A stretch of DNA of 53,072 nt from Candidatus Woesearchaeota archaeon (GTDB lineage: Archaea; Nanobdellota; Nanobdellia; Pacearchaeales; GW2011-AR1), in the NCBI GenBank assembly GCA_964598185.1, contig CAZRAT010000002.1, positions 3,769-56,840 on the forward strand, in the 5' to 3' direction. Position 1 is the first letter of the stretch, and each line of letters begins with the position of its first letter. The notes under the pieces were generated by a model that was not told the origin of the DNA, made no database searches, and saw nothing but the letters and a program-made list of their open reading frames with translations. Of this stretch, positions 4,618 to 47,274 are shown piece by piece. Made by a program: the position numbers and the translations under genes.

Positions 4618-5021
4618 TGAAATTCAAATTTTTAGAACACACATCAGATATAAAGTTTCAGGCATTTGGGAAAAGTTTGGAAGAAGTTTTTGCGAATTCT
4701 GCGTTGGCAATGTTCAATTCAATGTTTGAGGGGAAAGTTAAGAGAACTGAAAAATTTAATGTTGAAGCTGAAGGAAAAGATAATGAAAGTTTACTTTATA
4801 ATTTTTTAGAGGAGTTGATAATTTTATTTGACGAGAAGCAATTTTTTTTAGCTGGAGTTGAAAAGGTTGAGATTAAAGATGGGAAATTGCAAGCAGAGGT
4901 GGTCGGAGACAAGGCAGAAAATTACAAAATTAGTCTTGATGTAAAAGCAATAACTTATAGTGAAATGTTTGTGAAGAAAATAAAAGATAAATTTGTTGCA
5001 CAAGTTGTGCTTGATGTTTGA
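4617..5021 (+). CDS. archease (RtcB activator)
   Basis: MKFKFLEHTSDIKFQAFGKSLEEVF...AITYSEM fits the recalled archease pattern. The ATG at 4617 overlaps the previous stop (TAATG). RtcB lies nearby. Confidence 0.85.
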   Translation: MKFKFLEHTSDIKFQAFGKSLEEVFANSALAMFNSMFEGKVKRTEKFNVEAEGKDNESLLYNFLEELIILFDEKQFFLAGVEKVEIKDGKLQAEVVGDKAENYKISLDVKAITYSEMFVKKIKDKFVAQVVLDV

Positions 5022-5116
5022 TTTTGGGATTTAGATAAGTTGCTGGGAGTGAAGCACCATTAGTTTAAAGTATCAAAGGCAAAAACTTTATAATATCTGA
5101 AATTTTATTAGTTATT

Positions 5117-5530
5117 ATGAAAGAGAAAGATAAAATTTTTATCAAAAAAATTAGTAACAATGAGAAATATAATGAATTGGATATTGAAAAATCTGAAATT
5201 TTTCTAAGAAATTTGCAAGAATTCATAGTTAATATTGGATTGGCTAAAGTTAGCAAAGGAGAATACGAATTTGATGGAAAATCATATGATATGGAAACAT
5301 ATTATACTTTATTTTATGAAGATCCAAAAGATGATTTTCAAACGAAAAAATTAACAATTGATAACTTTGGCGAAGGTGAAATTGTTAGATATTTTAATAA
5401 AGAACTTGAATTACTCATAATTTTTCTGAATAATAGAATAAAGCTAATTTTTTATTGTGATCTGAAAATTCGTGAAAAAATTATGAAGGCCTTATTGAAG
5501 TTCTGTAAGATTATGAATGTTGGTTCATAA
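5117..5530 (+). CDS. hypothetical protein
   Basis: 137-aa ORF with a TATA-like CTTTATAATA ~25 nt upstream. No motif recognised. Confidence 0.4.
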   Translation: MKEKDKIFIKKISNNEKYNELDIEKSEIFLRNLQEFIVNIGLAKVSKGEYEFDGKSYDMETYYTLFYEDPKDDFQTKKLTIDNFGEGEIVRYFNKELELLIIFLNNRIKLIFYCDLKIREKIMKALLKFCKIMNVGS

Positions 5531-5564
5531 AAAATAATAAAAACCCTTTCTTCTTCTTTATTAT

Positions 5565-6989: not shown

Positions 6990-7122
6990 TATTAAATAAA
7001 ATTATCTACTTAAAGAAAGAGGGCGAGTTTTCTACGAAAACAAATAGTCGGCTTTGCCGAAGATTTATTTATTGGACACTTTTCGATAAATTATTAAATC
7101 CCTATTCTTTTACTTTTTTAAG

Positions 7123-7869
7123 ATGGGATTTTTTCAAAAAGTAAAAAACTTTTTTGCAGATGAAGAAGGAGAAGATTACTTTGGTAATCAATGGATTACT
7201 TTAGATATTTCTTTATGGTGTCCTTATTCAGAAATGGTTAGAATAAAAGAAGCGTTAAAACCTTATGCAGAGGAGTTAAATTGGAAAATTCATTCATGGG
7301 ATGACACTAAGGATTTTGATGAAGAATTTGAGGATTTCGGTAGCGAATTGTTTAAGGATTTCAAGAAAGAAAATTTCAAAGATAAAAAAAATACTAGCGT
7401 AAGTGTAAATATGTATCCTGATGGAAGACTAACTCCTGATGAATTTTCAAAACTTAGAGAGAAAATTGTGAGTTTGGTTTATGCAATGCATAGAGATTTA
7501 ATTTATGGAGGAGATGATAAAAAAGCTCAAAAAGAGTTCAGGGAAACAATTAACATGACTTATTCAAGAGCAGAAGGGCATACTCCCAAAAGAAGTGACT
7601 GGATTGTTAAACAATCTGTCGGTTTTTTAAATATAGGATATCCATTAAATAAGAGATTAAATTTTGAAAAGAAAGATAAAGAAAAGGCACTCAAAATTTT
7701 TGGTAGAACGATTGAAGAAGATGTTAAATCTATTTTTGCCGAAGAACCAAAGAAGAAAGCAAAAAAGAAGCCTTCTAAAAAATCAGAAGATGAAATGGAT
7801 AAAAGTTTTGAAGAGGCTCATAAAAACATGCGAAAAGAATTAAGAGATTTATTTGGATTTGACATTTAA
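7123..7869 (+). CDS. hypothetical acidic/lysine-rich protein
   Basis: 248-aa ORF, no motif recognised. Confidence 0.4.
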   Translation: MGFFQKVKNFFADEEGEDYFGNQWITLDISLWCPYSEMVRIKEALKPYAEELNWKIHSWDDTKDFDEEFEDFGSELFKDFKKENFKDKKNTSVSVNMYPDGRLTPDEFSKLREKIVSLVYAMHRDLIYGGDDKKAQKEFRETINMTYSRAEGHTPKRSDWIVKQSVGFLNIGYPLNKRLNFEKKDKEKALKIFGRTIEEDVKSIFAEEPKKKAKKKPSKKSEDEMDKSFEEAHKNMRKELRDLFGFDI

Positions 7870-7903
7870 TAAAATATATAAAATAAAAACCTTCTCTAAT
7901 GTT

Positions 7904-8179
7904 ATGTCAAATGCAAGATTAATATTATTTGTGCAAACATTAGTCTTTTTTGTTTTAGGGATTTATCTTTCTATTCAGGGAATTCCTTCTGATGAAAATT
8001 CTGCAACTCTTTATGCAGGAGAACAAATAATGGATTCTTTGGCAGACGTTTCGGATAGCCCAGAGGTAGACAAAATTACAAATGACATGAAAAGCAATTT
8101 TAGATTATTTGGGAATTTTCTAGTGATAGCAAGTATATTAGAATTAATTGGATTGTTTATTTCTTTATTTAAGCGATAG
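7904..8179 (+). CDS. small membrane protein
   Basis: ATG at 7904 sits ~25 nt after AAATATATAAAA. Two hydrophobic helices. The track start at 7853 is a TTG and is probably not used. Confidence 0.45.
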   Translation: MSNARLILFVQTLVFFVLGIYLSIQGIPSDENSATLYAGEQIMDSLADVSDSPEVDKITNDMKSNFRLFGNFLVIASILELIGLFISLFKR

Positions 8180-8267
8180 TTTATATATTTACAAAAGTGC
8201 CCAACTTCTTTTTTAGAAAAAAAGAAACAAAAAAACGCTCTCTTTCCAAAACTTCTTAACCTCTATT

Positions 8268-10154
8268 CTACCTTAATCTCAAAGTTTCTAATCCCCTCGG
8301 AACATTTGTTTCAACTCTGTTTAGTTTGTAAAGTGAAGAAGCCAAGTCTAATGATTTTGAAATTTCGCCGTGGTTGATTATTATTCTTTTTGGTTTTGGT
8401 CTCATGTTATTGAAAAAAGAAATTATCTCGTTTCTTCCAGCGTGAGGAGATAAACCTGTTAACAATTCTATTCTCATATTAACATCAACTGTTCTTTTTC
8501 CATCCTGGTCTTCAATCACAACTGTTCTTTCTCCATCTTGAAGTCTTCTTCCAAGAGAACCAGGTCCTTGATAACAACTCATTATCATTAAATTATTTTC
8601 ATTCTCTGAAAATTCTTTGAAATATTCAACTGATGCTCCGCCTACAAGCATACCTGAAGTTGCGATAACTATGCAAGGCCCGCCTTCTATAACTTCTTTT
8701 CTTTCTTGAGGAGAACCAACTCTCTTGAAAATATCTGATAGGAAGGGATTTTTATCTTGAAAGATTGATGATTTAATCTGACTACTTAAAAAATCAGGAT
8801 AAGCTGTATGAATTGCATTGATGTCCCAAATCATACCGTCGATATACATTGGCACGTTTGGCAGTTCGCCTTGTCTTATTGCTTCTTCAACTCTAAGAAT
8901 TGTTTCTTGCGCATGCCCTAATCCTAATTCTGGGATAAGCACTTTTCCTTTTCTTTCAATTGTATCTTTAACCATTTTAATAAAAGTTGCTTCTGTTTCT
9001 TTTCTTGGAGGAAGAATATCATCTTTTGAACCATAGGTTGATTCTGTAATTACTGACTCAACTCTTGGGAAAGTTGTTATTGCAGGGTCAAGCAACCTTG
9101 TTTTAGAATATTTATAATCTCCAGAATAAAGTAAATTATGTGCTCCGTTTCCTATATTTAGGTGCGCCATTGCACTACCAAGCACATGACCTGCATTATA
9201 AAAAGTTAATCTTATGTCGGGAGTTATATCTGTAACCTCGTTGTAGTTCAAGCAAATACTGTGCTTTACCATGTCCTTAATATGTGTTGAGTCAAACAAT
9301 GGCTGTGCTGCCTGCTTGTAAGCAACGCCAATAAAATCCAAAGATAACAATGCGGCAATATCTCTTGTTGGAGTTGTCATGTATACTGGTCCTTTGTAAC
9401 CCATTTTGTACAAGTAAGGCAAAAGCCCGACGTGGTCAAGGTGCGCGTGGCTTATTATTACTGCGTCAAGTTGTGCTATGTCAAATTCTGGGACATCTAA
9501 AACAGGAAATTTTTCTTGCCCATGTGAAGCAACATCTACTCCACAATCAAGAAGAACTTTTGAATTAGGTGTTTGCAAAAGAATACAGCTTCTTCCAACT
9601 TGCCTTGCCCCTCCTAAAAAAGTCAGTCTAACCCACTCGTTTGTTTTTTCAGGATTCCACTCCTTGTAAATTTTTTGCCCAACTGAATTAAGAAATTTCC
9701 TTCGATAATTATTATTTGCATAAAGCACTTCTCTAATATTCTCAGTTATTTTACTTTTTATTGCAGGAGACCTTTGAATTTGGGGAATCCATAAAGTTTT
9801 TTGTTTTATTTCTTCCAAAATAGAACCTTGCTTTCCTATAACCATTCCTGGTTTTTTTGCTTCTATTACAACTATGCTCCTATGAAAATCAAAAATGACA
9901 TTTGTTATTTCTGCTTCTTCTGGAACAATCTTTTTTATTTCTTGCTCGGTTAGCTCCTGGTCCATAAGAATTTTTTGGTCTGCTCTTAATTCAACTCTTT
10001 TTTTTATTTCGTTAACTATTTCTTTTATTTTTCCTCCATCTTCTTTGAAAAACTTTTCATTATTAGTATAAAGAACTATGTTTGCTCCTTCAAATCCAGC
10101 GTCGGTGATATCTCCATGAAGCTGTTCTATTATATTCTTTAGAATGTCTACCAT
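8268..10154 (-). CDS. aCPSF1 (KH-domain beta-CASP metallo-beta-lactamase ribonuclease)
   Basis: N-terminal KH region (VIGKQGSILEEIKQ), HAHLDHVG motif, 628 aa. Confidence 0.9.
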   Translation of the reverse strand: MVDILKNIIEQLHGDITDAGFEGANIVLYTNNEKFFKEDGGKIKEIVNEIKKRVELRADQKILMDQELTEQEIKKIVPEEAEITNVIFDFHRSIVVIEAKKPGMVIGKQGSILEEIKQKTLWIPQIQRSPAIKSKITENIREVLYANNNYRRKFLNSVGQKIYKEWNPEKTNEWVRLTFLGGARQVGRSCILLQTPNSKVLLDCGVDVASHGQEKFPVLDVPEFDIAQLDAVIISHAHLDHVGLLPYLYKMGYKGPVYMTTPTRDIAALLSLDFIGVAYKQAAQPLFDSTHIKDMVKHSICLNYNEVTDITPDIRLTFYNAGHVLGSAMAHLNIGNGAHNLLYSGDYKYSKTRLLDPAITTFPRVESVITESTYGSKDDILPPRKETEATFIKMVKDTIERKGKVLIPELGLGHAQETILRVEEAIRQGELPNVPMYIDGMIWDINAIHTAYPDFLSSQIKSSIFQDKNPFLSDIFKRVGSPQERKEVIEGGPCIVIATSGMLVGGASVEYFKEFSENENNLMIMSCYQGPGSLGRRLQDGERTVVIEDQDGKRTVDVNMRIELLTGLSPHAGRNEIISFFNNMRPKPKRIIINHGEISKSLDLASSLYKLNRVETNVPRGLETLRLR

Positions 10155-17993: not shown

Positions 17994-19334
17994 TTATAAT
18001 TTCAACTTCTGACCGTCTTGCATCAAGTGACATTGTTTGCCTATATCATAACCCATTTCTCTTGCAAGTTCAATCATAGGAGTTAGTTGTTGTGTTGAAC
18101 CATGGGCAGGAATTATGTGCTCAGGATTTACTATTGAAATTAAATCTCTTAAATCTTCTTTTCCTCCATGTCCTGAAACATGAACCTTGTCAAAAATTCT
18201 AACCCCTGATTTTTTTAATCTTTTATCCAACTGTCCTTTGCTTGCTATGTTTACTGGTACAGGAATTGTTTTTGACGCGAAAATTATATTATCATTTTGT
18301 GTAAATTCAAAAGGTAATTGTTTTCTTGAAAGCCGGTCCAAAATACTTCCTGACTCTCCTTGATGACCTGTACAAATAACTAAAGAATTTTCCCTATCTT
18401 TGCTGACTTTTTTTAAAATTGCTTCCACTTGTCTTTTATAACTTCCAATATAAATATCTTTATGGTAAGGACACATATTAACTTCTTTTGCAGCTGAAAG
18501 ATATTTATTCATGCTTCTCCCAATAACATAAACTTTTCTGTTAAGTTTTTTTGCATAATCAACTATGCTTTTTATCCTTGCTATATGTGAAGAAAATGTT
18601 GCGACAAAAATTGCGGATTTCTGGTTTTCGACTGTCATTAAAACTTCTTCTACCATTGCTCTTGCGATTTTCTCGCTTGGAGTTTTTCCCTCTGAACCAG
18701 AATAAAGTGAATCCACCACCAAAGCCTTTACACCTTGTTTTGCAATTCTTTTTAGTGCTTGATAATTTGGAGGTAACCCCATAACAGGAGTGTTGTCCAT
18801 TTTGAAATCATTTGCATACAAAACAATTCCTTCTGGAGTGTGCAAAGCCATCATTGAAGTTTGTATTGTAGAGTGCGTGGCATTAATGAATTCAACTTCG
18901 TAGTTCCTTTTTCCTTTTATAGTATAAGTAGAATTAGGGTTAACTGCTTTTATCTGATTTGGAATTTTTATTTTATCGTCCTGCAGGATTTTTTTCAGGA
19001 CAGTTGTTGTGAAAGGTGTTCCAACAACAGGGGCTTTATACCTATAACCTAAATATGGAATTGCCCCAATGTGATCTAAATGCGCGTGCCCTAAAAGAAT
19101 TGCCCTAACTTTGTTTCTTATTCCAAATTTATCTAAAATTAAATCATTTGGTAGTGCTCCAATGTTCCTTAATTTTTTTTCAGAGGGTATTGTTTGTCTT
19201 TCTTCTTGTTCTTGTAATTCAATAAGTGCAGGCAAGTGAACTCCTGCATCAAACATAACTGCATCATCCCCCATATCTACTACAGTCATATTTTTTCCTA
19301 CCTCATTAAATCCACCAATAGTATGTATTTCCAA
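17994..19334 (-). CDS. beta-CASP metallo-beta-lactamase ribonuclease, archaeal RNase J-like
   Basis: IGGFNEVGKNMTVV, LLGHAHLDHIGAIPYL, ~446 aa. Confidence 0.7.
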   Translation of the reverse strand: MEIHTIGGFNEVGKNMTVVDMGDDAVMFDAGVHLPALIELQEQEERQTIPSEKKLRNIGALPNDLILDKFGIRNKVRAILLGHAHLDHIGAIPYLGYRYKAPVVGTPFTTTVLKKILQDDKIKIPNQIKAVNPNSTYTIKGKRNYEVEFINATHSTIQTSMMALHTPEGIVLYANDFKMDNTPVMGLPPNYQALKRIAKQGVKALVVDSLYSGSEGKTPSEKIARAMVEEVLMTVENQKSAIFVATFSSHIARIKSIVDYAKKLNRKVYVIGRSMNKYLSAAKEVNMCPYHKDIYIGSYKRQVEAILKKVSKDRENSLVICTGHQGESGSILDRLSRKQLPFEFTQNDNIIFASKTIPVPVNIASKGQLDKRLKKSGVRIFDKVHVSGHGGKEDLRDLISIVNPEHIIPAHGSTQQLTPMIELAREMGYDIGKQCHLMQDGQKLKL

Positions 19335-21433: not shown

Positions 21434-22099
21434 ATGACAGAAAGAAAAATAATAATACCTGGAGAAAAGATTGTTGATAGCGGAGATTTTTTGCCGGGCG
21501 AGGGAACAGAAAAGAGGGATGACGGGATTTATGCTTTGAGATTTGGGCTTGCTGAAACATTGGATAAATTAGTTAAAGTTATTCCGTTGTCAGGAGTTTA
21601 TAGTCCGCGAAGAGGAAATGTTGTTATTGGTAAAGTTGAAGAAATTACTTTTAATGGATGGATAATTAATATTAATGCTTCTAGGACTGCGTTTTTGTCT
21701 TTGATGGAAGTTCCGCGATATGTGAATAAGGACGAGCTTGATGAAGTTATGGATATCGGGGACATGGCAGTTGTTAAAATTTGGGGAATAAATAAACGAG
21801 GAATTGATGTGAGTCTTAAATCACGGGGGCTTGGTAAGATTGAAGATGGAATAATTATAGAAGTAAATCCGCACAAAGTTCCGAGGATTATTGGTAAAGA
21901 AGGTAGCATGATAAAATTAATAAAAGATAATACAAAATGCGATATTGTTGTTGGACAAAATGGTTTGATTTGGATAAGTGGCGATAAAGTAGAAGAAGAA
22001 TTGTCGGCCAAAGAAGCAATTTTGCATGTGGCTGAAAAATGTTTTGTGAGTGGTTTGACAGAAGAAATGGAGAAATATTTTAAGGGGGGGAAGAAATGA
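21434..22099 (+). CDS. rrp4: exosome RNA-binding subunit Rrp4 (S1 + KH)
   Basis: S1-like GNVVIGKVEEI...W.ININ and KH IIGKEGSMIKLIK. Confidence 0.85.
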   Translation: MTERKIIIPGEKIVDSGDFLPGEGTEKRDDGIYALRFGLAETLDKLVKVIPLSGVYSPRRGNVVIGKVEEITFNGWIININASRTAFLSLMEVPRYVNKDELDEVMDIGDMAVVKIWGINKRGIDVSLKSRGLGKIEDGIIIEVNPHKVPRIIGKEGSMIKLIKDNTKCDIVVGQNGLIWISGDKVEEELSAKEAILHVAEKCFVSGLTEEMEKYFKGGKK

Positions 22100-22117
22100 C
22101 TTGTTTAGAAAATTCAT

Positions 22118-22933
22118 GTGGAGAGTGTTCAGGATACCAAACCTCTGGGACAAATTATGGATCCCAATACGAAGATGAAGAAGATACAAATAAATATGCA
22201 AGAAAACAAACACAATATTAAAATGGCAGAAATAAAAAGACAAAGTGGAAGAAAAGCCGACGAGATAAGACCGATTAGTGCAAAAGTTGGAATTATTCCG
22301 AATGCAAATGGAAGTGCAATGTTTCAATCAGGAAACACAATTGCGATTGCAGCGGTTTATGGGCCAAAAGAGCACCATCCTAGAAATCAGAGAAATCCAG
22401 CAAAGGGAACTTTGAGATGCACTTACAACATGATGAGTTTTTCTGTAACAGACAGGATAAGACCTGGACCAAACAGAAGAAGTACTGAAATAAGTAAGAT
22501 TACAGAATGGGCTTTGGAGCCTGTTGTGATGTTAGAAGATTATCCTGGAATGGTTGTTGATGTTCATATTCACATGACTCAGGCCGACGCTGGAACAAGA
22601 TGCGCAGGAATTAACGCGGCTGCAATGGCTTTGGCACACGCAGGAATCCCAATGAAAAACATGGTTTCAAGTATTGCTGCAGGAAAACTTGACAAAACAA
22701 TTGTTTTGGACTTGGACAAATACGAAGATTCAGAGTTTGAAGACGGCGAGGGTTCAACAGACATTCCAATTACTTTTACAAATGATGGAAAGTTAACTCA
22801 TATTCAAGTTGATGGGCATATTACAACAGAGCAATTAAAACAAGCTATGAAAATGGCAAGAGAAGCAAGCAAGAAAATTTATGAAGTCCAGAAACAGGCT
22901 TTGAAAGATAGTTTAGTAGGAGATTTAAAATGA
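22118..22933 (+). CDS. rrp41: exosome RNase PH subunit Rrp41 (start uncertain; in-frame ATGs at 22157 and later)
   Basis: GRKADEIRPI..KVG, NGSAMFQSGNT, ADAGTRCAGINAA. Confidence 0.85.
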   Translation: MESVQDTKPLGQIMDPNTKMKKIQINMQENKHNIKMAEIKRQSGRKADEIRPISAKVGIIPNANGSAMFQSGNTIAIAAVYGPKEHHPRNQRNPAKGTLRCTYNMMSFSVTDRIRPGPNRRSTEISKITEWALEPVVMLEDYPGMVVDVHIHMTQADAGTRCAGINAAAMALAHAGIPMKNMVSSIAAGKLDKTIVLDLDKYEDSEFEDGEGSTDIPITFTNDGKLTHIQVDGHITTEQLKQAMKMAREASKKIYEVQKQALKDSLVGDLK

Positions 22934-23736
22934 TTGAACAAACAACATCAAATATAACAAAGAAAAGAATTCAAGAATATTTAGAACAAGGTAAAAGATT
23001 TGATGGTCGAGAACTTAATGAATTTAGAGATTTAAGTATTGAAACAGGTGTTTCAAAAAATGCTGATGGTTCTGCGAGAGTAAAAATTGGAAACACAGAA
23101 GTTTTGGTTGGGGTTAAGATGAATGTTGGAACTCCTTATTCTGACTCTCCTGGAAAAGGAAACATGATGGTAACTTCTGAATTGCTTCCATTGAGTTCTC
23201 CAAGGTTTGAAAATGGCCCGCCTAAATTTCCTGCAATTGAGGTTGCAAGAGTTATTGATAGAGGAATAAGGGAATGTGGATTTATTGATTTTGATAAGTT
23301 ATGCATTAAAGAAGGGGAGAAGGTTTGGACAGTTTTCATAGACATTTATTCAATAAACGACGACGGAAACTTATTAGATGCTGCCGGGATTGGAGCAGTT
23401 GCTGCTTTAAGAAATGCAAAAATTCCAAAGTATGATGAAGAAGAAGAGAAAGTTTTATTTGGTGAATTGACTGATAAGAGTTTGCCTATAAAAAAGGACT
23501 TTCCAATTTCAATTACTTTTCATAAAGTTGGGAAGAATATAATTGTTGATCCAACAAGAGAAGAAGAAGATGTTGGGGAAACAAGAATCACAATTGGAAG
23601 TTCAAATGGCATTATCTCTTCAATGCAAAAAGGAAATTCAGAAGCAATTGAAGTCGAAGAGTTTGAAAAAGTTTTAGATATGTTGGATAAGACTTGGAAG
23701 GATATATTTAAAAAAATTGAAAAGGCAGTTAAGTAA
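22930..23736 (+). CDS. rrp42: exosome RNase PH-like subunit Rrp42
   Basis: RFDGRELNEFRD, ADGSARVKIGNTEV. 4-nt overlap with rrp41. Confidence 0.85.
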   Translation: MIEQTTSNITKKRIQEYLEQGKRFDGRELNEFRDLSIETGVSKNADGSARVKIGNTEVLVGVKMNVGTPYSDSPGKGNMMVTSELLPLSSPRFENGPPKFPAIEVARVIDRGIRECGFIDFDKLCIKEGEKVWTVFIDIYSINDDGNLLDAAGIGAVAALRNAKIPKYDEEEEKVLFGELTDKSLPIKKDFPISITFHKVGKNIIVDPTREEEDVGETRITIGSSNGIISSMQKGNSEAIEVEEFEKVLDMLDKTWKDIFKKIEKAVK

Positions 23737-28680: not shown

Positions 28681-28698
28681 GTATGTAGAAGTAGTTTG
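28681..28698 (+). other. 16S processing stem, 5-prime strand (pairs with 30401..30418)
   Basis: GTATGTAGAAGTAGTTTG is complementary (16/18) to CAAATTATTTCTACATAC just 3-prime of the 16S. Confidence 0.6.
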
Positions 28699-28926
28699 TT
28701 GTAGTTCTAATATTTATAGCCGTTGAATTCTATTCAACATCGTTAAATGAATTTAATCAATATCTTTTATAGATATTGAATATCAAATAATTCGTCTTTA
28801 GACGAAATATTTCTGATAGTACTTATTTGACCTAAGCCAATAGTTAGGAATTGTGTGAAGTGTAATTTTTCTTACAAAAATTATGCGCTGAGATTATTTT
28901 TTTAAATTATAATCAATGAAGTTTAA

Positions 28927-30376
28927 ATCCAGTTGATCCTGCTGGCGGCTGCGGCTCTCTGGTTTGCACTTAGACATGCAAGTTTTTTTGTTTGGTTCTT
29001 CGGAATTAAGTGAAAGGCGAACTGCTCAGTAACACGTAGCTAACCTACCCTTAGGTCAAGGATACCCTCGAGAAATTGAGACTAATACTTGATAAGAGAT
29101 ATACCCTGGAATGATTTATCTCTGAAACTCGCGCCTAAGGATGGGGCTGCGGCAGATTAGGTTGTTGGCGGGGTAATAGCCCACCAAGCCTATGATCTGT
29201 AAGGGCTCTTAGCGGAGAGGCCCTGAGAGGGAATCTGAGACACTATTCCCAGCCCTACGGGGTGCAGCAGTTAGGAATAATCTACAATGCGCGCAAGCGT
29301 GACAGTTTGAGCCAGAGTGTTTTCCAATTTGGAAAGCTTTTGTGAAATGTAAAAAGTTTTTCGAATAAGGACTGGGTAAGACTAGTGCCAGCCGCCGCGG
29401 TAATACTAGCGGTCCAAGTCGCAGCCATTTTTATTGGGTCTAAAACATCCGTAGCTTGTTTGATAAGTTTCTTGTGAAATTTTGCATCTTAAATGTAGAG
29501 CGCGCAAGAAATACTGTCAAGCTAGAGACTGGAAGACGTGAGAAGTATGTTCAAAGTAGCGGTAAAATGTGTTAATCTTGAGCAGACTAACAATAGCGAA
29601 GGCATCTCACGAGGACAGTTCTGACAGTAAGGGATGAAGGCTAGGGGCGCAAAACGGATTAGATACCCGTGTAGTCCTAGCAGTAAACACTGCACACTAA
29701 ACATTAGTACCTCCTCGAGAGGTATTGGTGCTGAAGGGAAGCCGAAGAGTGTGCTACCTGGGAAGTATAGTCGCAAGGCCGAAACTTAAAGGAATTGGCG
29801 GGGAGACACTACAACGAGTGACGCGTGCGGTTCAATTAGATTTTACACCGTGAACCTCACCAGGAGCGACAGCAGGATGAAGGTCAGTCTAAAGGGCTTA
29901 CCTGACACGCTGAGCGGAGATGCATGGCCGACGTCAGCCTGTGCTGTGAAGTGACCTGTTAAATCAGGTAACAGGCAAGACCCACATGTATATTTATCAT
30001 TACAATATACAGATTGCCTTGGTAACAAGGATGAAAGTGTGGGCTACGTTAGGTGGGTACAGCCCGACCGCCCTGGGCAACACGCGCGCGTCAATGGTGA
30101 ATACAATGGGATGCAACACCGAAAGGTGAAGCCAATCTCTTAAAGTTCATCTCAGTCCAGATTGAGGTTTGTAACTCAGCCTCATGACGCTGGAATTCGT
30201 AGTAATCGGATGTTATCAACGTCCGGTGAATAAGTCACTGTCTCTTGCACACACTGCCCGTCAAACCAACCAAGTTTATTTATGATGAAACTTTTCGAAG
30301 GAGAATCTTGGGTAAGCGAGGTAGGTTAAGTCGTCACAAGGTATCTGTAGGGGAACCTGCAGATGGATCACCTCCT
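28927..30376 (+). rRNA. 16S rRNA (about 1450 nt, ends approximate)
   Basis: 5-prime AATCCAGTTGATCCTGCTGGCGG, GTGCCAGCCGCCGCGGTAATAC, GGATTAGATACCCG, AAACTTAAAGGAATTGGCGGGG, 3-prime GGATCACCTCCT. Confidence 0.95.
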
Positions 30377-30472
30377 AAAAATTATTATAATATTAACTTG
30401 CAAATTATTTCTACATACATCTTATAATCAAAAAACAAAACTTAAAAAACTAAAATTCATTAATTGAACTAT

Positions 30473-30588
30473 GGGCCCATAGTCCAATGGCTTAAGATAC
30501 TTCCCTTGCACGGAATAAGATGTGGAACATTATCACGTCTTTATTCCAAAGAACGGAAGAGGTCCGTGTTCGATTCACGGTGGGTCCA
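30473..30588 (+). tRNA. tRNA-Ala(UGC) with a 43-nt intron at 37/38 (30511..30553)
   Basis: Acceptor GGGCCCA/TGGGTCC with G3:U70, anticodon stem CTTCC/GGAAG, loop CTTGCA-C, T arm CCGTG-TTCGATT-CACGG. The intron forms a GGAATAAGA/TCTTTATTCC hairpin. Confidence 0.9.
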
Positions 30589-30701: not shown

Positions 30702-30723
30702 TGTTCGAATTACGGTGGGTCCA
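30702..30723 (+). pseudogene. degenerate duplicate of the tRNA-Ala 3-prime end
   Basis: GTTCGAATTACGGTGGGTCCA versus GTTCGATTCACGGTGGGTCCA (19/21). The T stem can no longer pair and there is no 5-prime half. Confidence 0.6.
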
Positions 30724-30769
30724 TTTTATTTTTTAGGAAATTGAAGTTATTATAAAATGGTAACAGATA

Positions 30770-30784
30770 GAAAGGTTTAAAAAA
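30770..30784 (+). promoter_or_regulatory. BRE/TATA promoter inside the rRNA spacer (GAAAGGTTTAAAAAA)
   Basis: ~25 nt upstream of the ATG at 30805. Confidence 0.5.
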
Positions 30785-30804
30785 TCAAATATGATATAAG
30801 AATT

Positions 30805-31182
30805 ATGACAGATAAAGATTTAGGAAATTTATTAAATCAAACTTCTAAAAAAAGAGTTAGCAATATAGATGTAATAAAATCATTTGGAAATAATTTTAAG
30901 AACATAGCAATAAATCTTCCTGGAGCTTTTTATGCTGCTCCAACATGGGTTAGAAAAAACTGTCCTGAAGAAGTAGAAGGGATAGTGGCTTGGTTAAGTA
31001 TGGCTGGGGCAGGAGTTCATGGTTTAGCATATTTATTACTTGGAAATGAGATAATAAATAATATATTTAATACAGATACTTCAAATCCTATTCATCTTCC
31101 ATTATATCTCTTACCTCTTGTCACAAATAGTCTTTCTTGGGGATATGAAACCTTCAGGAATAGAAAAGAAGATTTGGAATAA
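30805..31182 (+). CDS. hypothetical membrane-associated protein encoded in the tRNA-Ala/23S spacer
   Basis: 125-aa ORF with its own promoter and hydrophobic segments (IVAWLSMAGAGVHGLAYLLLG). No family recognised. Confidence 0.45.
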   Translation: MTDKDLGNLLNQTSKKRVSNIDVIKSFGNNFKNIAINLPGAFYAAPTWVRKNCPEEVEGIVAWLSMAGAGVHGLAYLLLGNEIINNIFNTDTSNPIHLPLYLLPLVTNSLSWGYETFRNRKEDLE

Positions 31183-31465
31183 TTAATCTTATTAACCTCT
31201 ATTGTATATTTTTCGCAAATCATATTCAATTTTTCTTTAACAACTTTGTGTTCTAGCAAAAAGTTTTTCTAAGACTACCGAACATTTTAAATACTGAAAT
31301 TTCACTTTAATATTAAATAAAAAATTATTATTATAAAATCGTAATAAAAAATATTCAAAATCATACTCTTTCCCAAGTTTCGTCGGGAAACGAGTTTCCT
31401 ACTCATTCACGAGATGGTGCGGCAACTATGTTGTTGTATCGTAATGAGAACTTTACGTTCAATGA

Positions 31466-31480
31466 AATAAGCAGTAGAAG
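31466..31480 (+). other. 23S processing stem, outer 5-prime strand (pairs with 34974..34988); the inner stem 31556..31565 pairs with 34963..34972
   Basis: AATAAGCAGTAGAAG / CTTCTACTGCTTATT is a perfect 15 bp. AATTCTTAGA / TCTAAGAATT is a perfect 10 bp. Confidence 0.65.
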
Positions 31481-32850
31481 AATCCCACTAGTTTGTATTA
31501 AAATACAAACTAATGACGGAAGGTTTTCAATTTATTGAAAACTTTTAAACAAATTAATTCTTAGACATACTACTAATTTATACTGTTAGACAGATAGCTT
31601 GGTTTTGGTTATGATGAAGGACGTGGCAAGCTGCGATAAGCTTGGGGGAGCTGCATGCAAGCTTTGATCCCAAGATTTCTGAATTATTCCGAGAGGAAAA
31701 AATACGCCGGGAATTGAAACATCTTAGTACCGGCAGGAAAAGAAAACAATAGTGATGCCCTTATTAGCAGCGAGCGAAAAGGGCCCGGGGCAATCTGAAT
31801 CTTCTCTTGAAAGAGAGATAGAAATGTGGTGAGGATAAACAGCTAAGTCGACGAGTCAAAGTGAACTGGAAAGTTCCACCTTAGAAGGTGATAGTCCTGT
31901 AGACTAAATCGATACACTGTTCCTCGACGAGTAGGGCTTCCTGGATTGGAGGTCTGAATACGGCGGGATTAACCGCCAACCCTAAATAAAACCAAAGTCC
32001 GATAGCGCACTAGTACCGCGAGGGAAAGCTGAAAAGTACTCTTAACAGAGGTTGAAAAGACTTGAAATCTAACAGTTACAGTTTGTTACTGCTCTATTCA
32101 CTTTAGTGTGGAAGGGTTGTAACGTACGTTTTGAAGAACGGGCCAGGGAGTTTTTCTATATGGCGAGGCTAATCAATTATATTGAGTAACCGAAGCGAAA
32201 GCAAGTGTGAAAGCGCGCGAGTCATATGGATAAGACCTGAAGCCAGATGATCTATTTATGGGCAAGCTGAAGTCTTTCGAAAGGAGGATGGAGGGCTGAA
32301 CCGGTGTTGTGGACATGCACTCGAATGACCTGTGAATAGGGGTGAAAAGCTTATCTAATCTGGCGATGGCTGGTTCCTGCTGAAATATGCCTACGTATAG
32401 TCTTGTGTAGTTTGTTGGCGGTGTAAAGTACGGATAAATCTTGCAGGAGCTAATGCTTACGGAGATTTTTCCAACTCAGAAACTGTTAACTGCGTAGCAC
32501 AAGAATCAGGTGCAGTATGTAAGATACTGTTCCGAGAGTGGAACAACACAGACCAGAGTTAAGGTCCCAAAATTTATGCTAAGTGTATCAAAAGGCGTCT
32601 TGAACCTGAGACACCGGGGATGTAAGCTTAGAAGCAGCTATCATTTAAAGAAAGCGTAACAGCTCACCCATCGAGGTTCAGGGCCCTGAAAATGGACGGG
32701 GCTAAGCATAATACCGATACTTTGGAGGCATTCGGTTTAAAATTAATATAGGTAAAATAAAAATTTTATCTGTCGTATAAAAAAGATATTTAATACGAGT
32801 GGGATTTTGATGTTGAGGATTTTTGTTTTAACTTAGAAGTTAAGACCAAT

Positions 32851-32866
32851 GGGAAGGTTTATAAAT
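32851..32866 (+). promoter_or_regulatory. BRE/TATA promoter inside the 23S insertion (GGGAAGGTTTATAAAT)
   Basis: ~25 nt upstream of the ATG at 32887. Confidence 0.5.
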
Positions 32867-32886
32867 GTTATAGATTAAGAGAAGTT

Positions 32887-33162
32887 ATGGAAAATAAAGA
32901 TGAACTAAGTCACCTTCGTTGTTATTGGACACGACCGTTTGGACATATCTGGAAAGAAGGCCAAACTTCTTATGAAAGAAATTGTGTACTTTGCAACCAA
33001 GATAGTATTAAAGGAAATTATGATGGAGGCTGGCATTATGACTTAGATGTTCATTATGATGAACTAACAGGAGGTCAAAAAGCTAGAACCTTGACTGAAA
33101 AACATCAGGCAAGAGCACTAAGAGCTTTAGACAAAAAGAAAAAAAGACTAAAAATTTCTTGA
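32887..33162 (+). CDS. small Cys/His-containing basic protein encoded in the 23S insertion (not LAGLIDADG)
   Basis: 91 aa. HLRC...H...CVLC pattern and a basic tail KKKKRLKIS. Followed by the hairpin TTCGTCAAAAACGAA. Confidence 0.45.
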   Translation: MENKDELSHLRCYWTRPFGHIWKEGQTSYERNCVLCNQDSIKGNYDGGWHYDLDVHYDELTGGQKARTLTEKHQARALRALDKKKKRLKIS

Positions 33163-33993
33163 AGACCCTTTTAAAATAATTCTTCACACTCACTCAAATT
33201 CGTCAAAAACGAATTTTCACAAATCATATTCAATTTTTCTCAACATCAAAATCTAATATTATTAATATAGAATGTTCTAGTAAGCAGGCGTACTATTTGC
33301 GCAGAAGTTTTTTCGAGAGAAAGAGTGGAGCGAATAGTAATGAGAATCCTGGTAAGAGTAGGATGTGATTATTCTGAGAATGAATAAGGTCGAAAGGGTA
33401 AGGTTTCCTTGGCAATATCGTTTAGCTAAGGGTTAGTCAGCACCTAAGTCGTATCTTAACTGAGTACGACGATGGATATCAGGTTAATATTCCTGGACTA
33501 ATTAAATCTTATATAATATAATTTGCTTTCGGATAGGCATGCAGGTGAAAGCCTGTTTTAACGAGAAATCTGTTGAGGGTAATCCTAAGATGCAGATGAA
33601 TTTTTGAATTGCTGCTGACTCCAAGAGCCAGTGAAAAGATTATACTAATGTTTCTTGCTTGCAAGAGACGTCCCAAAAAGTTGCAAAACTTTTTGGTGTT
33701 GATTTAATTAGCTGTACCCACAACCGACACTGGTGCCCAGGCTTAGTAGGCCAAGACCTGAAAGGTAAAACCAATTAAGGGAATTCGGCAAGTTAGTCCT
33801 GTAGCTTCGGCTGAAGGGATGTCTACCTTTGTGTGCTTAGTAATATGTGTGCATTGTTAGATCTCAGTAACAAGGATGGCCCGACTGTTTACCAAAAACG
33901 TAGCCAAGTGCTAATCTGAAAAGACTTGTATACTTGGTGAGACCTGCCCAGTGGTGGTGTCTAAAACTCCTTTTCAAGGGAGCTAAGGTCCAT

Positions 33994-34028
<35 letters not shown>

Positions 34029-35021
34029 ACGTAATACCTTGTCGTATGAATTGCGACTTGCATGAATGGTTTAACGAGGTTGTCACTGTCCCTAATTGGA
34101 GCCTTCCGAACATATCTTCCGGTGAATAGACCGGAGACACCTAGTGGGAAGCGTAGACCTTGTGGAACTTTACTGCAACTTGTTGTTGTAATTTTATAAG
34201 AAATGCATAGCATAGGTAGGAGCGTCGAAGTCGTCATTTTGGTGACGATGGAGCGAACTTGTAATACTACCCATTTTTTATAGAATTGCTTACCATTTAT
34301 GGGACAGCAGCAGGCGGGCAGTTTGGCTGGGGCGGCACCCTGTCGAAAAGATATCGATAGGACCCAAAGACAAGCTCATCCAGCTTGGAAATCTGGAGTT
34401 GAGTGCGAAGGCAAAAGCTTGTCTGACTGTTTTTTGAAAAGCAAGAAAAGCAGGAGCGAAAGCTGGGCTTAGTGAACCCACGTGCTTTTTTAATAGAAGC
34501 CGTGTCTGATAGAAAAGTTACCCCAAGGATAATTGGCTTGTCTCCCCCGATAGTCCGAATTGACGGGGAGGTTTGGTACACCGCTGTCGGCTCTCCCTAT
34601 CCTGCGCGTGCAGAAGCGTGCAAGGGTGCCGGAGTTCACGTATTAAAAGGGATCGTTAGCTGGGTTAAGAACGTCGCGAGACAGTTTGTATGATATCTAC
34701 TAGGTGTGTTATTGTCTGAGTGGAACAAGTTTCCAGTACGAGAGGAACGGAACTTGGTTGCCTCTGGTGAGCAGTTGTCAATTGGCAGGCTGCATAGCTA
34801 CGCAATGTGTGGATAAGAGCTGAATGCATCTAAGCTCGAAGCCATCCGCAAAACGAGACAATTAAGGCCGTCAAAGAAGATGACGTTGATAGAGTTCTTG
34901 TGTAAGATTGAAGGTTCGCCGACAATTTCAGCATAGAACTACTAATAGCCTCCATGTATTATTCTAAGAATTACTTCTACTGCTTATTTTGTTTGATTTA
35001 ATCTTAAAGTAGTTACATCAT

Positions 35022-35037
35022 AGAAAGATTTATAAAA
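35022..35037 (+). promoter_or_regulatory. BRE/TATA promoter-like box just 3-prime of the 23S (AGAAAGATTTATAAAA)
   Basis: Consensus-like box. The next ATG (35101) is ~65 nt downstream, which implies a leader. Confidence 0.35.
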
Positions 35038-45305: not shown

Positions 45306-46022
45306 ATGGTGAAAAAAGCAATTTTATTTGATTTGGATGATACTCTATATGATTATCATTATGCACATAGTAAAGCACTCGATGCCATTTATCCTCTTTT
45401 AGCAAAATATATTAAAATCTCAAAGAAAAAATTTCTCGCATTATATAAGATGGCAAATGATGAAATAAAAAATGAACTTGCAGGAACAGCGTCGTCGCAT
45501 AATCGTGTTTTATATTTTCAAAGAGTTATTGAAAAAACCCATAATACTGTTGAACCAAAAATTATTTTAAAAATGTATAAAACTTATTGGGACACATTTC
45601 TAAATAATATGAAAATTGGAAAAGGAGTTGAACAAACATTAAAACTATTACAAAAAATGAAAATTAAAATAGCAATTGTAACTGATTTAACAGCACATAT
45701 TCAACTGAGAAAAATAGATAAATTAAAATTGACCAAATATGTTGATTATCTTGTTACTTCAGAAGAAGCAGGAGGTGAAAAACCAAATGCGATTATATTT
45801 TTATTAGCATTGAATAAATTAAATATTCTTCCTAATGAAGCAATTATGGTAGGAGATAATTTAGTAGCGGATATTGAAGGAGCTAATTCTTTGGGGATTG
45901 ATAGTGTAGCAATTACTAATAAAAAAATAAAAGCAGATAAAGAAGATTATAAAAAACCTAATTATATTATTAAAACAATTCCAGAAGTATTGGATATAAT
46001 AAAAGATGGTGAAAAAATTTGA
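45306..46022 (+). CDS. HAD-superfamily hydrolase/phosphatase
   Basis: ILFDLDDTLYD (DxDxT), VTDL, GGEKP, VGDNLVADIEGA. Confidence 0.75.
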   Translation: MVKKAILFDLDDTLYDYHYAHSKALDAIYPLLAKYIKISKKKFLALYKMANDEIKNELAGTASSHNRVLYFQRVIEKTHNTVEPKIILKMYKTYWDTFLNNMKIGKGVEQTLKLLQKMKIKIAIVTDLTAHIQLRKIDKLKLTKYVDYLVTSEEAGGEKPNAIIFLLALNKLNILPNEAIMVGDNLVADIEGANSLGIDSVAITNKKIKADKEDYKKPNYIIKTIPEVLDIIKDGEKI

Positions 46023-47274
46023 ATTCATAAAATTAAAATATTTACCAAAAAAAACAGATGTAATTTGTCAATATAAAATTACTCCTGCGAGAGGTAAAAA
46101 TTTTAGAGAAGTTATTAATGCTGTTGCAGGTGAAAGTTCTATTGGAACATGGACTGAAATTTCTACTCTGAAAAAAAATATTCATAAAAAACTTGCTCCA
46201 AAAATTTATTATATTGACAAAAAAAATTATAGGGTTAGAATTGCCTATCCTATTGAATTATTTGAATTAGGAAATTTGCCTGAGATTTTATCTTCTATTG
46301 GAGGGAATATTTTTGGAATGAAATCTGTTAAAGGATTATTATGGGAAGATATAAAAATCCCTAAGAAAATGTTGAAAAGTTTTAAGGGACCAAGATTTGG
46401 AATTGAGGGATTAAGGAAAAAATTTAATGTAAAAGACAGACCTTTTATTGGAACTATTGTAAAACCAAAGGTTGGATTAGATGAAAGAGAGCATGCTAAA
46501 GTTGCATATGAGGCTTGGAAAGGAGGTTGTGATATTGTTAAGGATGATGAGAATTTAACAAGCCAAAATTTTAATAAATTTAAGAAAAGATTTTTACTAA
46601 CAAATAAGCTGAGGAAAAAAGCAGAAAAAGAAACAGGAAAGAAAAAAGCTTACTTGGTTAATTGCACAGCTGAAACAAATACTATGAAAAGAAGAATTAA
46701 GTTTGTTGAAGAAAATGGAGGGAATTATATTATGTTAGATATCTTGACTTTGGGTTGGGCAGCTTTACAAACAGCAAGGGATTTTACAAAACTTCCGATT
46801 CATGCACATCGTGCAGGACATGCAATGTTTGACAGAAATTCAAGTCATGGAATGAATATGGAAGTAATTGCGCAATTCGCAAGAATGGTAGGAGTTGATA
46901 CTTTACATATTGGAACTGTTGTAGGAAAAATGGTTGGAGGAAAAGATGAAGTTTTACATATTGAACAAGATATTGAACAAGAATTCACAAAAGAAACAAG
47001 AAAAAATCTTTCTCAAAAGTGGTATAAAACAAAACCTGTTTTGGCTGTAGCTTCTGGAGGAGTTCATCCTGGAATAGTTGGTAAAATTATGAAGAACCTG
47101 GGAAAGGATATTGTCATTCAAGCAGGAGGAGGAATTCACGGACATAAATTTGGAACAGAAGCTGGCGCAATTGCAATGTGTCAAGCAGTTGATGCTGTCT
47201 TGAAAAAAAAGAGTTTGAAAGAATATGCAAGGACGCATGTTGAATTAGAAGAGGCTTTAAAGAAATGGGGGTGA
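46006..47274 (+). CDS. rbcL: RuBisCO large subunit, form III-like
   Basis: GTIVKPKVGL, GGCDIVKDDENL, IHAHRAGHAMFDR, HIGTVVGKM, VASGGVHPG, QAGGGIHGH. Confidence 0.85.
   Translation: MVKKFEFIKLKYLPKKTDVICQYKITPARGKNFREVINAVAGESSIGTWTEISTLKKNIHKKLAPKIYYIDKKNYRVRIAYPIELFELGNLPEILSSIGGNIFGMKSVKGLLWEDIKIPKKMLKSFKGPRFGIEGLRKKFNVKDRPFIGTIVKPKVGLDEREHAKVAYEAWKGGCDIVKDDENLTSQNFNKFKKRFLLTNKLRKKAEKETGKKKAYLVNCTAETNTMKRRIKFVEENGGNYIMLDILTLGWAALQTARDFTKLPIHAHRAGHAMFDRNSSHGMNMEVIAQFARMVGVDTLHIGTVVGKMVGGKDEVLHIEQDIEQEFTKETRKNLSQKWYKTKPVLAVASGGVHPGIVGKIMKNLGKDIVIQAGGGIHGHKFGTEAGAIAMCQAVDAVLKKKSLKEYARTHVELEEALKKWG

Follow-up and report, generated by a model that had tools for sequence, protein, structure and literature searches.

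A family of stem-closed inserts in the tip of 23S rRNA helix 45 of Pacearchaeota-like archaea carries exchangeable small genes

The region analysed, hereafter the window, is a stretch of 53,072 nucleotides from Candidatus Woesearchaeota archaeon (GCA_964598185.1, contig CAZRAT010000002.1, positions 3,769 to 56,840 of the forward strand) and contains an intact 16S-tRNA-23S operon. Homologues of the RtcB encoded in it point to Pacearchaeota/Nanoarchaeota. The 23S rRNA gene is a full-length match to the Rfam archaeal LSU model (LSU_rRNA_archaea, 2061 bits), and the alignment places a 533-nt unaligned block inside the terminal loop of the hairpin at model positions ~1289-1316. This hairpin lies just 3' of the GTPase-centre helices and, from this position on the 23S map, is taken to be helix 45. 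Relatives without an insert have the same stem capped by a loop of only 4-5 nt, e.g., GGCATTC-AGTT-GAATGTTC, and the insert therefore spans exactly 32734-33269. The features of the locus, all on the forward strand, are as follows.

31566-34963 (+), 23S rRNA gene that hosts the insert
32724-32733 (+), helix 45, 5' strand (GGAGGCATTC), of which the top five nucleotides CATTC pair with GAATG at 33270-33274
32734-33269 (+), the 536-nt insert that replaces the helix-45 loop
32734-32741 (+), unpaired 5' junction loop GG-TTTAAA (family consensus R-N-UUUAAA)
32742-32748 (+), basal closing helix P1, 5' strand (ATTAATA), pairing with 33260-33266
32749-32798 (+), 50-nt side branch of two small hairpins, specific to this lineage
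32799-32819 (+), P1 continuation, 5' strand, in which GTG pairs with TAT at 33257-33259 and the 18-nt GGATTTTGATGTTGAGGA pairs with 33237-33254
32822-32849 (+), conserved small hairpin (TTTTAACT-N-AGTTAAGAC) ahead of the promoter
32849-32865 (+), BRE/TATA-like promoter ATGGGAAGG-TTTATAAA, with the TATA octamer at 32858-32865
32887-33162 (+), ORF of 91 aa with Cys/His (CHCC) residues, the cargo of this copy
33196-33217 (+), hairpin AAATTCG-N7-CGAATTT followed by T4, terminator-like (function inferred)
33220-33240 (+), conserved 3' box CAAATCATATTCAATTTTTCT
33237-33266 (+), P1, 3' strand: TTCTCAACATCAAAATCT, AA bulge, TAT, TATTAAT
33267-33269 (+), 3' junction bulge ATA (family consensus A-Y-A)
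33270-33279 (+), helix 45, 3' strand (GAATGTTCTA)

The initial annotation, which described an insertion of about 536 nt in a 23S hairpin tip with paired exon edges, repeats, a promoter and an ORF, was correct in its observation on every point checked. The exon edges GGCATTC (32727-32733) and GAATGTT (33270-33276) pair as claimed, and in 17 related alleles the five top pairs are 100% paired, with compensatory changes in three of them. The direct repeat ATTAATATAG occurs at 32742-32751 and 33261-33270, and the perfect 15-bp inverted repeat, which lies within the continuation of P1, is found at 32803-32817 and 33239-33253 and extends to 18 bp when G.U pairs are allowed. The TATA octamer lies exactly 21 nt before the ATG at 32887 and matches a recurrent promoter-like motif of the window, which is also found at other gene starts and upstream of 16S. 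Nor is the insert an assembly artefact, as independent metagenome assemblies carry the same insert at the same site (related alleles are denoted by L-numbers), i.e., L004 with 99% protein identity, L003 with 81% and L005-L008 with 71%.

In a sample of 119 related 23S genes, 95 have the plain hairpin and 22 have an insert of 356-911 nt at this site. All inserts share one RNA scaffold. In an anchored alignment of 20 alleles the junction is an invariant asymmetric internal loop, 8 nt (R-N-UUUAAA) opposite 3 nt (A-Y-A), followed by the long closing helix P1, which in the window comprises 7 + 3 + 18 bp according to the inverted repeats and the MFE fold. All 10 basal pairs of P1 show compensatory changes across the family. 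For P1 and helix 45 together, 93.7% of cells are paired and 13 of 15 pairs show changes on both sides, whereas slid controls give 31-50% paired and 0 of 500 shuffles reach the observed covariation score. G.U pairs occur 11 times and A.C never, which indicates selection on the sense RNA rather than on DNA repeats. The small hairpin ahead of the promoter, also present in the MFE fold, is found in L003, L033, L084, L106 and L126, while the 50-nt side branch seen in the MFE fold of the window is absent from L003 and present in L028 and L106. A TATA octamer lies 20-22 nt from the ATG in 25 of 26 related cassettes, and the 3' box is present at the 3' end of the cargo in all inserts. Other cargos have different GC-rich hairpins at the place of the terminator-like hairpin.

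The ORFs between these conserved parts are unrelated, as the ORFs of 26 cassettes fall into 21 similarity groups. Only one has a Pfam domain (a receiver domain), no nuclease, LAGLIDADG, integrase or transposase gene was found among the cassettes, and none of the 20 cargos other than that of the window has an endonuclease domain. The window and L028 share near-identical scaffolds with unrelated interiors, and the same holds for L005 and L091. Conversely, the same CHCC ORF sits in two different scaffold types (window/L003 versus L005), although only 7 of about 29 inserts carry it. L049 and L118 are 99.4% identical over about 2.1 kb of 23S and differ by the insert, demonstrating that it was gained or lost recently, and insert-bearing alleles are scattered over the 23S tree.

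The 91-aa protein belongs to a new small C-x7-H...C-x2-C family (CFWTWPFGHIW...CxxC) that is shared by DPANN archaea and Patescibacteria and is also found free-standing, outside rRNA genes, in archaea and in Patescibacteria, in the latter once directly after a 23S-5S operon. Homologues have 61-99% identity with in-frame indels only, and C12, H20, C33 and C36 are invariant across the wider family. Its dN/dS is however fairly high, 0.34-0.94, so that constraint on the protein is modest outside its N-terminal domain. Searches of Pfam (even at E <= 10), NCBIfam, PHROGs and PDB sequences gave no match, including to the 23S_rRNA_IVP/S23p family or to LAGLIDADG, HNH, His-Cys box or GIY-YIG endonucleases. 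An HNH or His-Cys box nuclease was considered but has no profile support, and the second His of a putative HNH motif is not conserved. AlphaFold prediction was poor with 6 sequences (pLDDT 54) and moderate with 29 sequences (pLDDT 72.6, pTM 0.65), the latter showing a small beta-hairpin zinc-ribbon-like N-domain and a long basic C-terminal helix. A Foldseek search of this model against the PDB gave no match with E <= 0.001; the best hit had E = 0.63 and TM about 0.2, and the weak top hits were zinc-ribbon ribosomal proteins.

The interpretation offered in the initial annotation is only partly supported by these data. It was right that the ORF is not a LAGLIDADG endonuclease and that the inverted repeat encloses a promoter and an ORF, and of its three proposals for the ORF (a different kind of nuclease, a nucleic-acid-binding protein or an unrelated passenger), the last is favoured. 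That the protein is the nuclease of the element is not supported, as most inserts of the family lack it and none carries a recognisable endonuclease. The framing as a classical archaeal bulge-helix-bulge (BHB) intron is not supported either. A scan for two 3-nt bulges on opposite strands separated by a 4-bp helix recovered the BHB of the tRNA-Ala intron in the same operon (CTTCC CTTG [CAC] GGAATAAG / TTTATTCC AAAG [AAC] GGAAG), but found none at the helix-45 junction in any of 20 alleles. Finally, ATTAATATAG, seen near both ends of the insert, is not supported as an element terminus; ATTAAT is self-complementary and the two copies are the two strands of basal P1, which also rules out a target-site duplication. 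A K-turn at the junction was rejected because the exon G-A that follows the A-Y-A bulge is Watson-Crick paired and covaries, and UUUAAA as a general signal for processing of 23S ends was rejected because it lies near the 23S 5' end in only 11 of 60 relatives. No intron family was detected in the window by covariance models at the Rfam gathering threshold, and the insert alone gave only chance-level hits at E <= 10, so that there is no evidence for a group I or group II ribozyme.

The best explanation rests on two layers. The analysis itself demonstrates the family of elements replacing the terminal loop of helix 45 in a clade of AT-rich, Pacearchaeota-like archaea, their common scaffold, the self-contained module of BRE/TATA, 21-nt spacer, ATG, small ORF and hairpin within it, and the status of the CHCC gene as a real and conserved gene that is the cargo of this copy but is not needed for the element. 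The mechanism, in contrast, is inferred from sequence alone, including processing of the RNA, expression of the cargo, zinc binding by the protein and exchange of cassettes. In this view the element would be transcribed within the pre-23S rRNA, and P1 would zip its ends together so that helix 45 and the rest of domain II can fold. The element would then be removed at the conserved junction (GGTTTAAA and ATA in this copy) by an endonuclease other than the BHB splicing enzyme, leaving a 23S in two pieces of about 1.17 and 1.69 kb, as bacterial helix-45 intervening sequences (IVSs) do. Independently, the internal promoter would produce a leaderless mRNA starting at or next to the ATG at 32887, to be translated into a small, putatively zinc-binding protein with a basic tail. 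At the DNA level the element would be gained or lost as a unit and its cargo module exchanged by recombination between the conserved flanks. The probability of this reading as a whole is put at about 0.5, with about 0.95 for the family, the scaffold and the passenger and about 0.45 for excision without ligation as the fate of the RNA. In agreement with processing at a stem, the 16S and 23S processing stems of this operon are themselves long uninterrupted duplexes, and the Coxiella IVS, which carries an ORF, is cut out of helix 45 by RNase III without ligation (PMC4990558). On the other hand, no RNase III gene was found among the ORFs of the window that were scanned, which include RtcB, FttA/aCPSF1, an RNase J-like protein, exosome subunits, SBDS and proteasome genes, and archaea generally lack RNase III; the proposed nuclease is hypothetical. 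An internal promoter and a terminator-like hairpin in the sense strand of an rRNA gene should moreover interfere with rRNA transcription, and the model offers no explanation of how this is avoided.

It is possible, but less likely, that the insert stays in the mature 23S rRNA as a long, surface-exposed extension of helix 45, with junction and P1 serving only to keep it folded and out of the way. Helix 45 tolerates extra RNA in bacteria and eukaryotes (PMC4990558), P1 covariation fits a purely structural role equally well, no recognisable cleavage motif exists at the junction and, again, no RNase III gene was found in the window. However, length and interior sequence are hypervariable between close relatives and nearly identical 23S alleles lack the insert altogether, so that it is dispensable for the ribosome, while a strictly conserved, single-stranded 8-nt UUUAAA loop points to recognition by a factor rather than to mere folding, and every known helix-45 IVS that has been tested is excised (PMC4990558). 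More doubtful is splicing by the tRNA-splicing endonuclease at a relaxed, non-canonical BHB-like motif, with exons rejoined by RtcB and release of a circular intron serving as mRNA. A BHB-dependent pathway exists in this organism, RtcB is encoded 27 kb away (5565-6989) although this is not specific to the insert, the A-Y-A bulge next to the exon helix resembles half of a BHB, and some archaeal endonuclease types accept relaxed motifs (PMC5829648). A splicing endonuclease of relaxed specificity cannot be ruled out. A purine-rich Shine-Dalgarno-like run also precedes most ATGs, which would matter only on a longer RNA such as an excised intron. Against this, the A-Y-A bulge faces an 8-nt loop on the same side of the 4-bp segment and not a second 3-nt bulge 4 bp away, P1 is continuous where that bulge should be in L003, L005 and others, the only strict BHB hits at other places in the window, apart from the tRNA-Ala intron, are weak, lie away from the junction and are not conserved in L003, and there is no homing endonuclease.

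A purely DNA-level MITE- or IS-like element, in which the repeats are transposase or recombinase sites and the RNA structure is irrelevant, is very unlikely. It would account for the terminal inverted repeats, the presence/absence polymorphism between near-identical alleles, the cassette-like cargo and a similar module in the spacer, but not for the G.U versus A.C asymmetry, the lack of a target-site duplication, the absence of a transposase or integrase from the 26 cassettes, or the fact that all members sit at exactly one rRNA position. That the interrupted 23S is an assembly chimera or pseudogene is most improbable. Beyond the general risk with metagenome assemblies there is only the observation that L004 ends inside the insert at the repeated 3' box, whereas the same insert appears at the same site in at least seven independent contigs from different samples and related inserts in about 20 more, and the flanking 23S is full length.

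The closest known analogues are the IVSs in helix 45 of bacterial 23S rRNA (Coxiella burnetii, Leptospira, Salmonella, Campylobacter), which replace the same loop, are of similar size (428-444 nt in Coxiella), have complementary termini forming a long stem (28 bp in Coxiella, about 28 bp here), in some cases carry an ORF whose relatives also occur free-standing, are sporadic among close relatives and are regarded as selfish elements (PMC4990558; PMC2801512). In Coxiella, excision gives fragments of ~1.2 and ~1.7 kb. The present family differs in its archaeal host, in the invariant UUUAAA/AYA junction that has no bacterial counterpart, and in ORFs that are hypervariable between members and have their own BRE/TATA promoter, whereas ORF-bearing bacterial IVSs carry one family. 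The archaeal BHB rRNA introns of Desulfurococcus, Pyrobaculum, Aeropyrum and Thermoproteales likewise interrupt an rRNA gene by a few hundred nt, may carry an ORF and are patchy among relatives; when an ORF is present it typically encodes a LAGLIDADG enzyme, and helix 45 was not among the intron positions listed in the papers examined (PMC6125680). Insertions are also frequent in rRNA genes of CPR bacteria, which are likewise ultra-small with reduced genomes, and a fraction of these match no intron class and have no known domain (PMC11270868), but most of their ORFs with a Pfam domain are LAGLIDADG or GIY-YIG endonucleases within group I/II-like introns, in contrast to the conserved non-intron scaffold with swapped cargo observed here. 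The eukaryotic expansion segment ES15L emerges from the same helix at the subunit surface; expansion segments are retained, carry no promoter or ORF and are not polymorphic between near-identical alleles. A resemblance to integron gene cassettes, i.e., conserved flanks around exchangeable, mostly orphan small ORFs, is functional only and inferred; no integrase or attC-type site was identified, each module brings its own promoter and the platform is a structured RNA inside an rRNA gene.

It is nevertheless tempting to speculate, although this is unlikely on present evidence, that helix 45 and the tRNA-Ala/23S spacer of Pacearchaeota-like archaea serve as a dedicated landing pad and expression platform for exchangeable small-protein cassettes, a kind of rRNA-operon 'integron'. 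The UUUAAA/AYA junction and the 3' box would then be signals for a new, non-BHB and non-RNase III processing or recombination machinery, and the released RNA or the leaderless transcript would supply hypervariable small proteins, among them a new zinc-binding family shared with CPR bacteria, that act on the ribosome or at the host-symbiont interface.

IVSs in helix 45 have been known for 35 years, but only in bacteria where RNase III removes them, and no description of helix-45 inserts in archaea was found in the literature that could be searched. The present family would be an archaeal counterpart whose strictly conserved junction fits neither the BHB nor the RNase III rule, pointing to a possible third route for archaeal rRNA interruptions and an unrecognised way of handling interrupted rRNA. 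The variable, promoter-equipped cargo shows that rRNA operons of ultra-small archaea harbour fast-turning-over small-protein genes, which gene callers and rRNA masking systematically hide. Inserts of this kind can also mislead rRNA-based binning and primer design, and they lengthen and break 23S assemblies because the 3' box is repeated in the spacer: an exact second copy lies at 31216-31230, and the box is also a conserved element of the tRNA-Ala/23S spacer in relatives.

The window carries an archaeal rRNA operon, and the features relevant to the insert are located as follows:

28926-30376, 16S rRNA
30473-30588, intron-containing tRNA, tRNA-Ala(UGC)
31566-34963, 23S rRNA
32734-33269, full extent of the insert
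32742-32751 and 33261-33270, 10-nt direct repeat
32803-32817 and 33239-33253, perfect 15-bp inverted repeat
32887-33162, ORF of 91 aa

The Rfam LSU model aligns continuously up to ...ACCGAUACUUUGGAGGCAUUC and resumes at GAAUGUUCUAGUAAGCAGGCG, leaving 533 nt unaligned inside the loop of the hairpin at model positions ~1289-1316. This hairpin follows the GTPase-centre helices and precedes the long helix that starts GGCG, and from its place on the 23S map it is helix 45. The direct repeat, the inverted repeat and the ORF listed in the initial annotation were all found, and the observation of an insertion in a 23S hairpin tip holds. The insert is real, and its boundaries are exact. The ORF has five close homologues in a collection of 5.8 billion proteins. 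Two metagenome contigs, L004 (99% identity) and L003 (81%), hold it at the same 23S position, as do contigs L005-L008 (71%), which come from four further samples. A metagenome scan with a 20-mer from the 23S just upstream of helix 45 returned 119 related genes, of which 95 have a plain helix 45, e.g., GGCATTC-AGTT-GAATGTTC in L029 and GGCATTC-ATTA-GAATGTTC in L081, and 22 have an insert of 356-911 nt at exactly this place. The insert therefore replaces a loop of 4-5 nt. The nearest named relatives of the RtcB encoded in the window are from Pacearchaeota and Nanoarchaeota MAGs, at 78-84% identity. The 23S of L005 (positions 4650-8364) is 3,715 nt, about 320 nt longer than that of the window, and as an ORF of 67 aa is called inside it at 7321-7524, it probably has at least one more insertion at another site.

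When the inserts are lined up they show the same order of parts. On the 5' side of the junction the helix-45 stem is followed by two variable nucleotides and an invariant UUUAAA, although one allele has UCUAAA. Then follows a helix, P1, of which the basal 10 bp differ in sequence between subfamilies but remain complementary, for example ATTAATAGTG/TATTATTAAT, ATTGTGTTGG/CCAACACAAT and GTGATGTGGG/CCCACATCAC. On the 3' side P1 is followed by an invariant A-Y-A and then by the 3' strand of helix 45. In an anchored alignment of 17 distinct alleles 93.7% of the cells are paired, and all 10 P1 pairs as well as 3 of 5 helix-45 pairs show changes on both sides. None of 500 shuffles reached the observed covariation score, and sliding the partners by 1-3 columns reduced pairing to 31-50%. 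Non-Watson-Crick pairs are G.U 11 times and A.C never, an asymmetry that is expected for pairing in the sense-strand RNA and not for DNA inverted repeats. In the window P1 consists of 7 bp (32742-32748 / 33260-33266), followed by a lineage-specific side branch of 50 nt, 3 bp, an AA bulge, and an 18-bp helix that contains the 15-bp inverted repeat. The ATTAATATAG that the initial annotation placed near both ends of the insert is simply the two strands of the palindromic base of P1.

The interior of the insert is an expression module with exchangeable cargo. In 25 of 26 cassettes a TATA-like octamer, preceded by a purine-rich ATAGAAAAG, lies 20-22 nt upstream of the ATG of a plus-strand ORF of 60-211 codons, and the spacing is 21 nt in 21 cases. 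The same motif occurs upstream of 16S and of other genes in the window. It is therefore the ordinary strong promoter of the host, and the spacing predicts leaderless mRNAs. Another strong promoter-like motif (ATAGAAAGATTTATAAA) lies at 35020-35036, about 60 nt after the 23S 3' end, and may belong to a further small gene downstream of the operon. Downstream of each ORF there is usually a GC-rich hairpin of varying sequence, followed by a conserved box, (CACAAA)TCATATTCAA(T). The ORFs themselves are unrelated, as 26 cargos fall into 21 similarity groups. Only one has a Pfam domain, and none has a nuclease, integrase or transposase domain. The exception is the largest cargo, a protein of 211 aa in the 850-nt insert of L098, which has a response-regulator receiver domain (36.5 bits, above the Pfam cut-off) and shows that ordinary cellular domains can be carried inside helix 45. 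The window and L028 have near-identical scaffolds on both sides but unrelated interiors, and the same holds for L005 and L091. Conversely, the Cys/His ORF sits in two different scaffold subfamilies (window/L003 versus L005). Cargo and scaffold are thus shuffled independently.

A second cassette of the same build is located at 30763-31236 in the spacer between tRNA-Ala and 23S. It has the promoter-like ACAGATAGAAAGG-TTTAAAAA, a 21-nt spacer and an ATG at 30805, its ORF encodes 125 aa (MTDKDLGNLL..., no Pfam hit), and an exact copy of the 3' box, CAAATCATATTCAATTTTTCT, follows at 31216-31236. Just before this cassette, 115 nt after the real tRNA end, a partial duplicate of the 3' end of tRNA-Ala (TGTTCGAATTACGGTGGGTCCA) lies at ~30702-30724, which is reminiscent of an integration scar. 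In related loci (e.g., L045, L087, L121, L017, and L044) the box TCATATTCAA-(loop)-TTGAA is found about 100-350 nt upstream of 23S. It is a conserved element of the tRNA-Ala/23S spacer in this clade, with or without a small ORF in front of it, and the helix-45 inserts therefore end with a copy of a spacer element.

All homologues of the Cys/His protein keep the frame, with only in-frame indels. Pairwise dN/dS is 0.34-0.94, so constraint is concentrated in the N-terminal half. A profile search of 1.84 billion representatives found 41 proteins, most of which are 60-165 aa and share CFWTWPFGHIW...SYDR.C..C...G.YD..W.DL, with C12, P17, H20, C33, and C36 as the invariant residues. The family has no match in Pfam, NCBIfam, PHROG or PDB sequences. 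With 29 sequences AlphaFold gave a model of moderate quality (pLDDT 72.6), in which three short predicted strands are followed by a basic helix of 24 residues, and a structure search with this model returned no significant neighbour. Members also occur in other contexts, i.e., in a protein-coding neighbourhood (the family member P0003), after an rpS2-like gene (contig L001), next to a tRNA (contig L002), and in Patescibacteria, where one member (P0006, at 524-820 of L009/L010, Patescibacteria MAG JBDRMC010000004.1) is encoded directly after a 23S-5S rRNA operon, about 150 nt downstream. L001 and L002 keep the CATATTCAATAATTCT box after the gene. In L002 (408-470) the box is followed by ATATAGAGTGTTATGTTAAGCAAGCG, and these 26 nt match the junction plus the 23S 3' exon at 22 of 26 positions, which hints that such free-standing copies derive from rRNA-borne ones. 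By inference, the protein may be a small zinc-binding and nucleic-acid-binding passenger, and nothing ties it to mobility of the insert.

The insert is not a ribozyme intron, as no covariance-model match was found, and it is not a classical archaeal intron either. With the correct bulge-helix-bulge (BHB) geometry the scan recovers the near-canonical BHB of the 44-nt intron at the canonical 37/38 position of the tRNA-Ala in this very operon, a gene that was found by Rfam but missed by ARAGORN, whereas it finds nothing at the helix-45 junction. The conserved junction is an 8 x 3 internal loop, and P1 is continuous where a second bulge would have to be. The interpretation in the initial annotation was only partly supported: it had viewed the insert against archaeal rRNA introns that are excised at BHB motifs, which does not fit the junction, but among the options it named for the ORF (a different kind of nuclease, a nucleic-acid-binding protein or an unrelated passenger) the last is the one that the data favour. 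The closest known kind is the bacterial helix-45 intervening sequence (IVS). The Coxiella element is 428-444 nt, is closed by a 28-bp stem and carries an ORF, and it is removed by RNase III without ligation into fragments of ~1.2 and ~1.7 kb (PMC4990558). Cutting at the junction here would give 1.17 and 1.69 kb. In contrast to the bacterial case, the host is an archaeon, the junction is invariant, the module has its own promoter, the cargo is hypervariable, and the ORF is not of the 23S_rRNA_IVP family. Full-text literature searches retrieved helix-45 IVSs in bacteria, BHB and group I introns in archaea at other positions (LSU 1923, 1931, 2500, and 2593), and uncharacterised insertions in CPR rRNA genes, but no description of helix-45 inserts in archaea.

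While the position of the insert, its shared anatomy and the exchange of its cargo are demonstrated by the comparisons, the leaderless transcripts, the binding properties of the Cys/His protein and the fate of the RNA are inferred. It is conceivable that the RNA is removed at the junction as in a bacterial IVS, without religation, and this reading is tentatively preferred with a probability of about 0.45. The strict conservation of a single-stranded junction argues for a reader, every tested helix-45 IVS is excised, and the insert is dispensable and hypervariable. Retention as an expansion segment appears less likely, and relaxed BHB splicing with ligation less likely still.

On a neighbour-joining tree of about 700 nt of flanking 23S the insert-bearing alleles are scattered among insert-less ones. 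L049 (with insert) and L118 (without) differ at 13 of about 2,114 aligned positions plus the 386-nt insert, and the element was therefore gained or lost very recently and cleanly.

The processing stems of the operon fold as uninterrupted duplexes of 20 bp for 23S (31461-31480 / 34974-34993) and 19 bp for 16S (28681-28699 / 30400-30418) without an evident BHB, which is unusual for an archaeon. This lineage may therefore process long duplexes in some other way. No RNase III gene was found among the ORFs scanned in the 53 kb of the window. The genes for RNA metabolism near the operon are those for the RtcB ligase, FttA/aCPSF1, an RNase J-like protein and the exosome subunits Rrp4/Rrp41/Rrp42. Together with a form III-like RuBisCO, which fits a DPANN-type archaeon, they are found at 5565-6989, 8268-10154, 17994-19334, 21434-23736, and 46006-47274.
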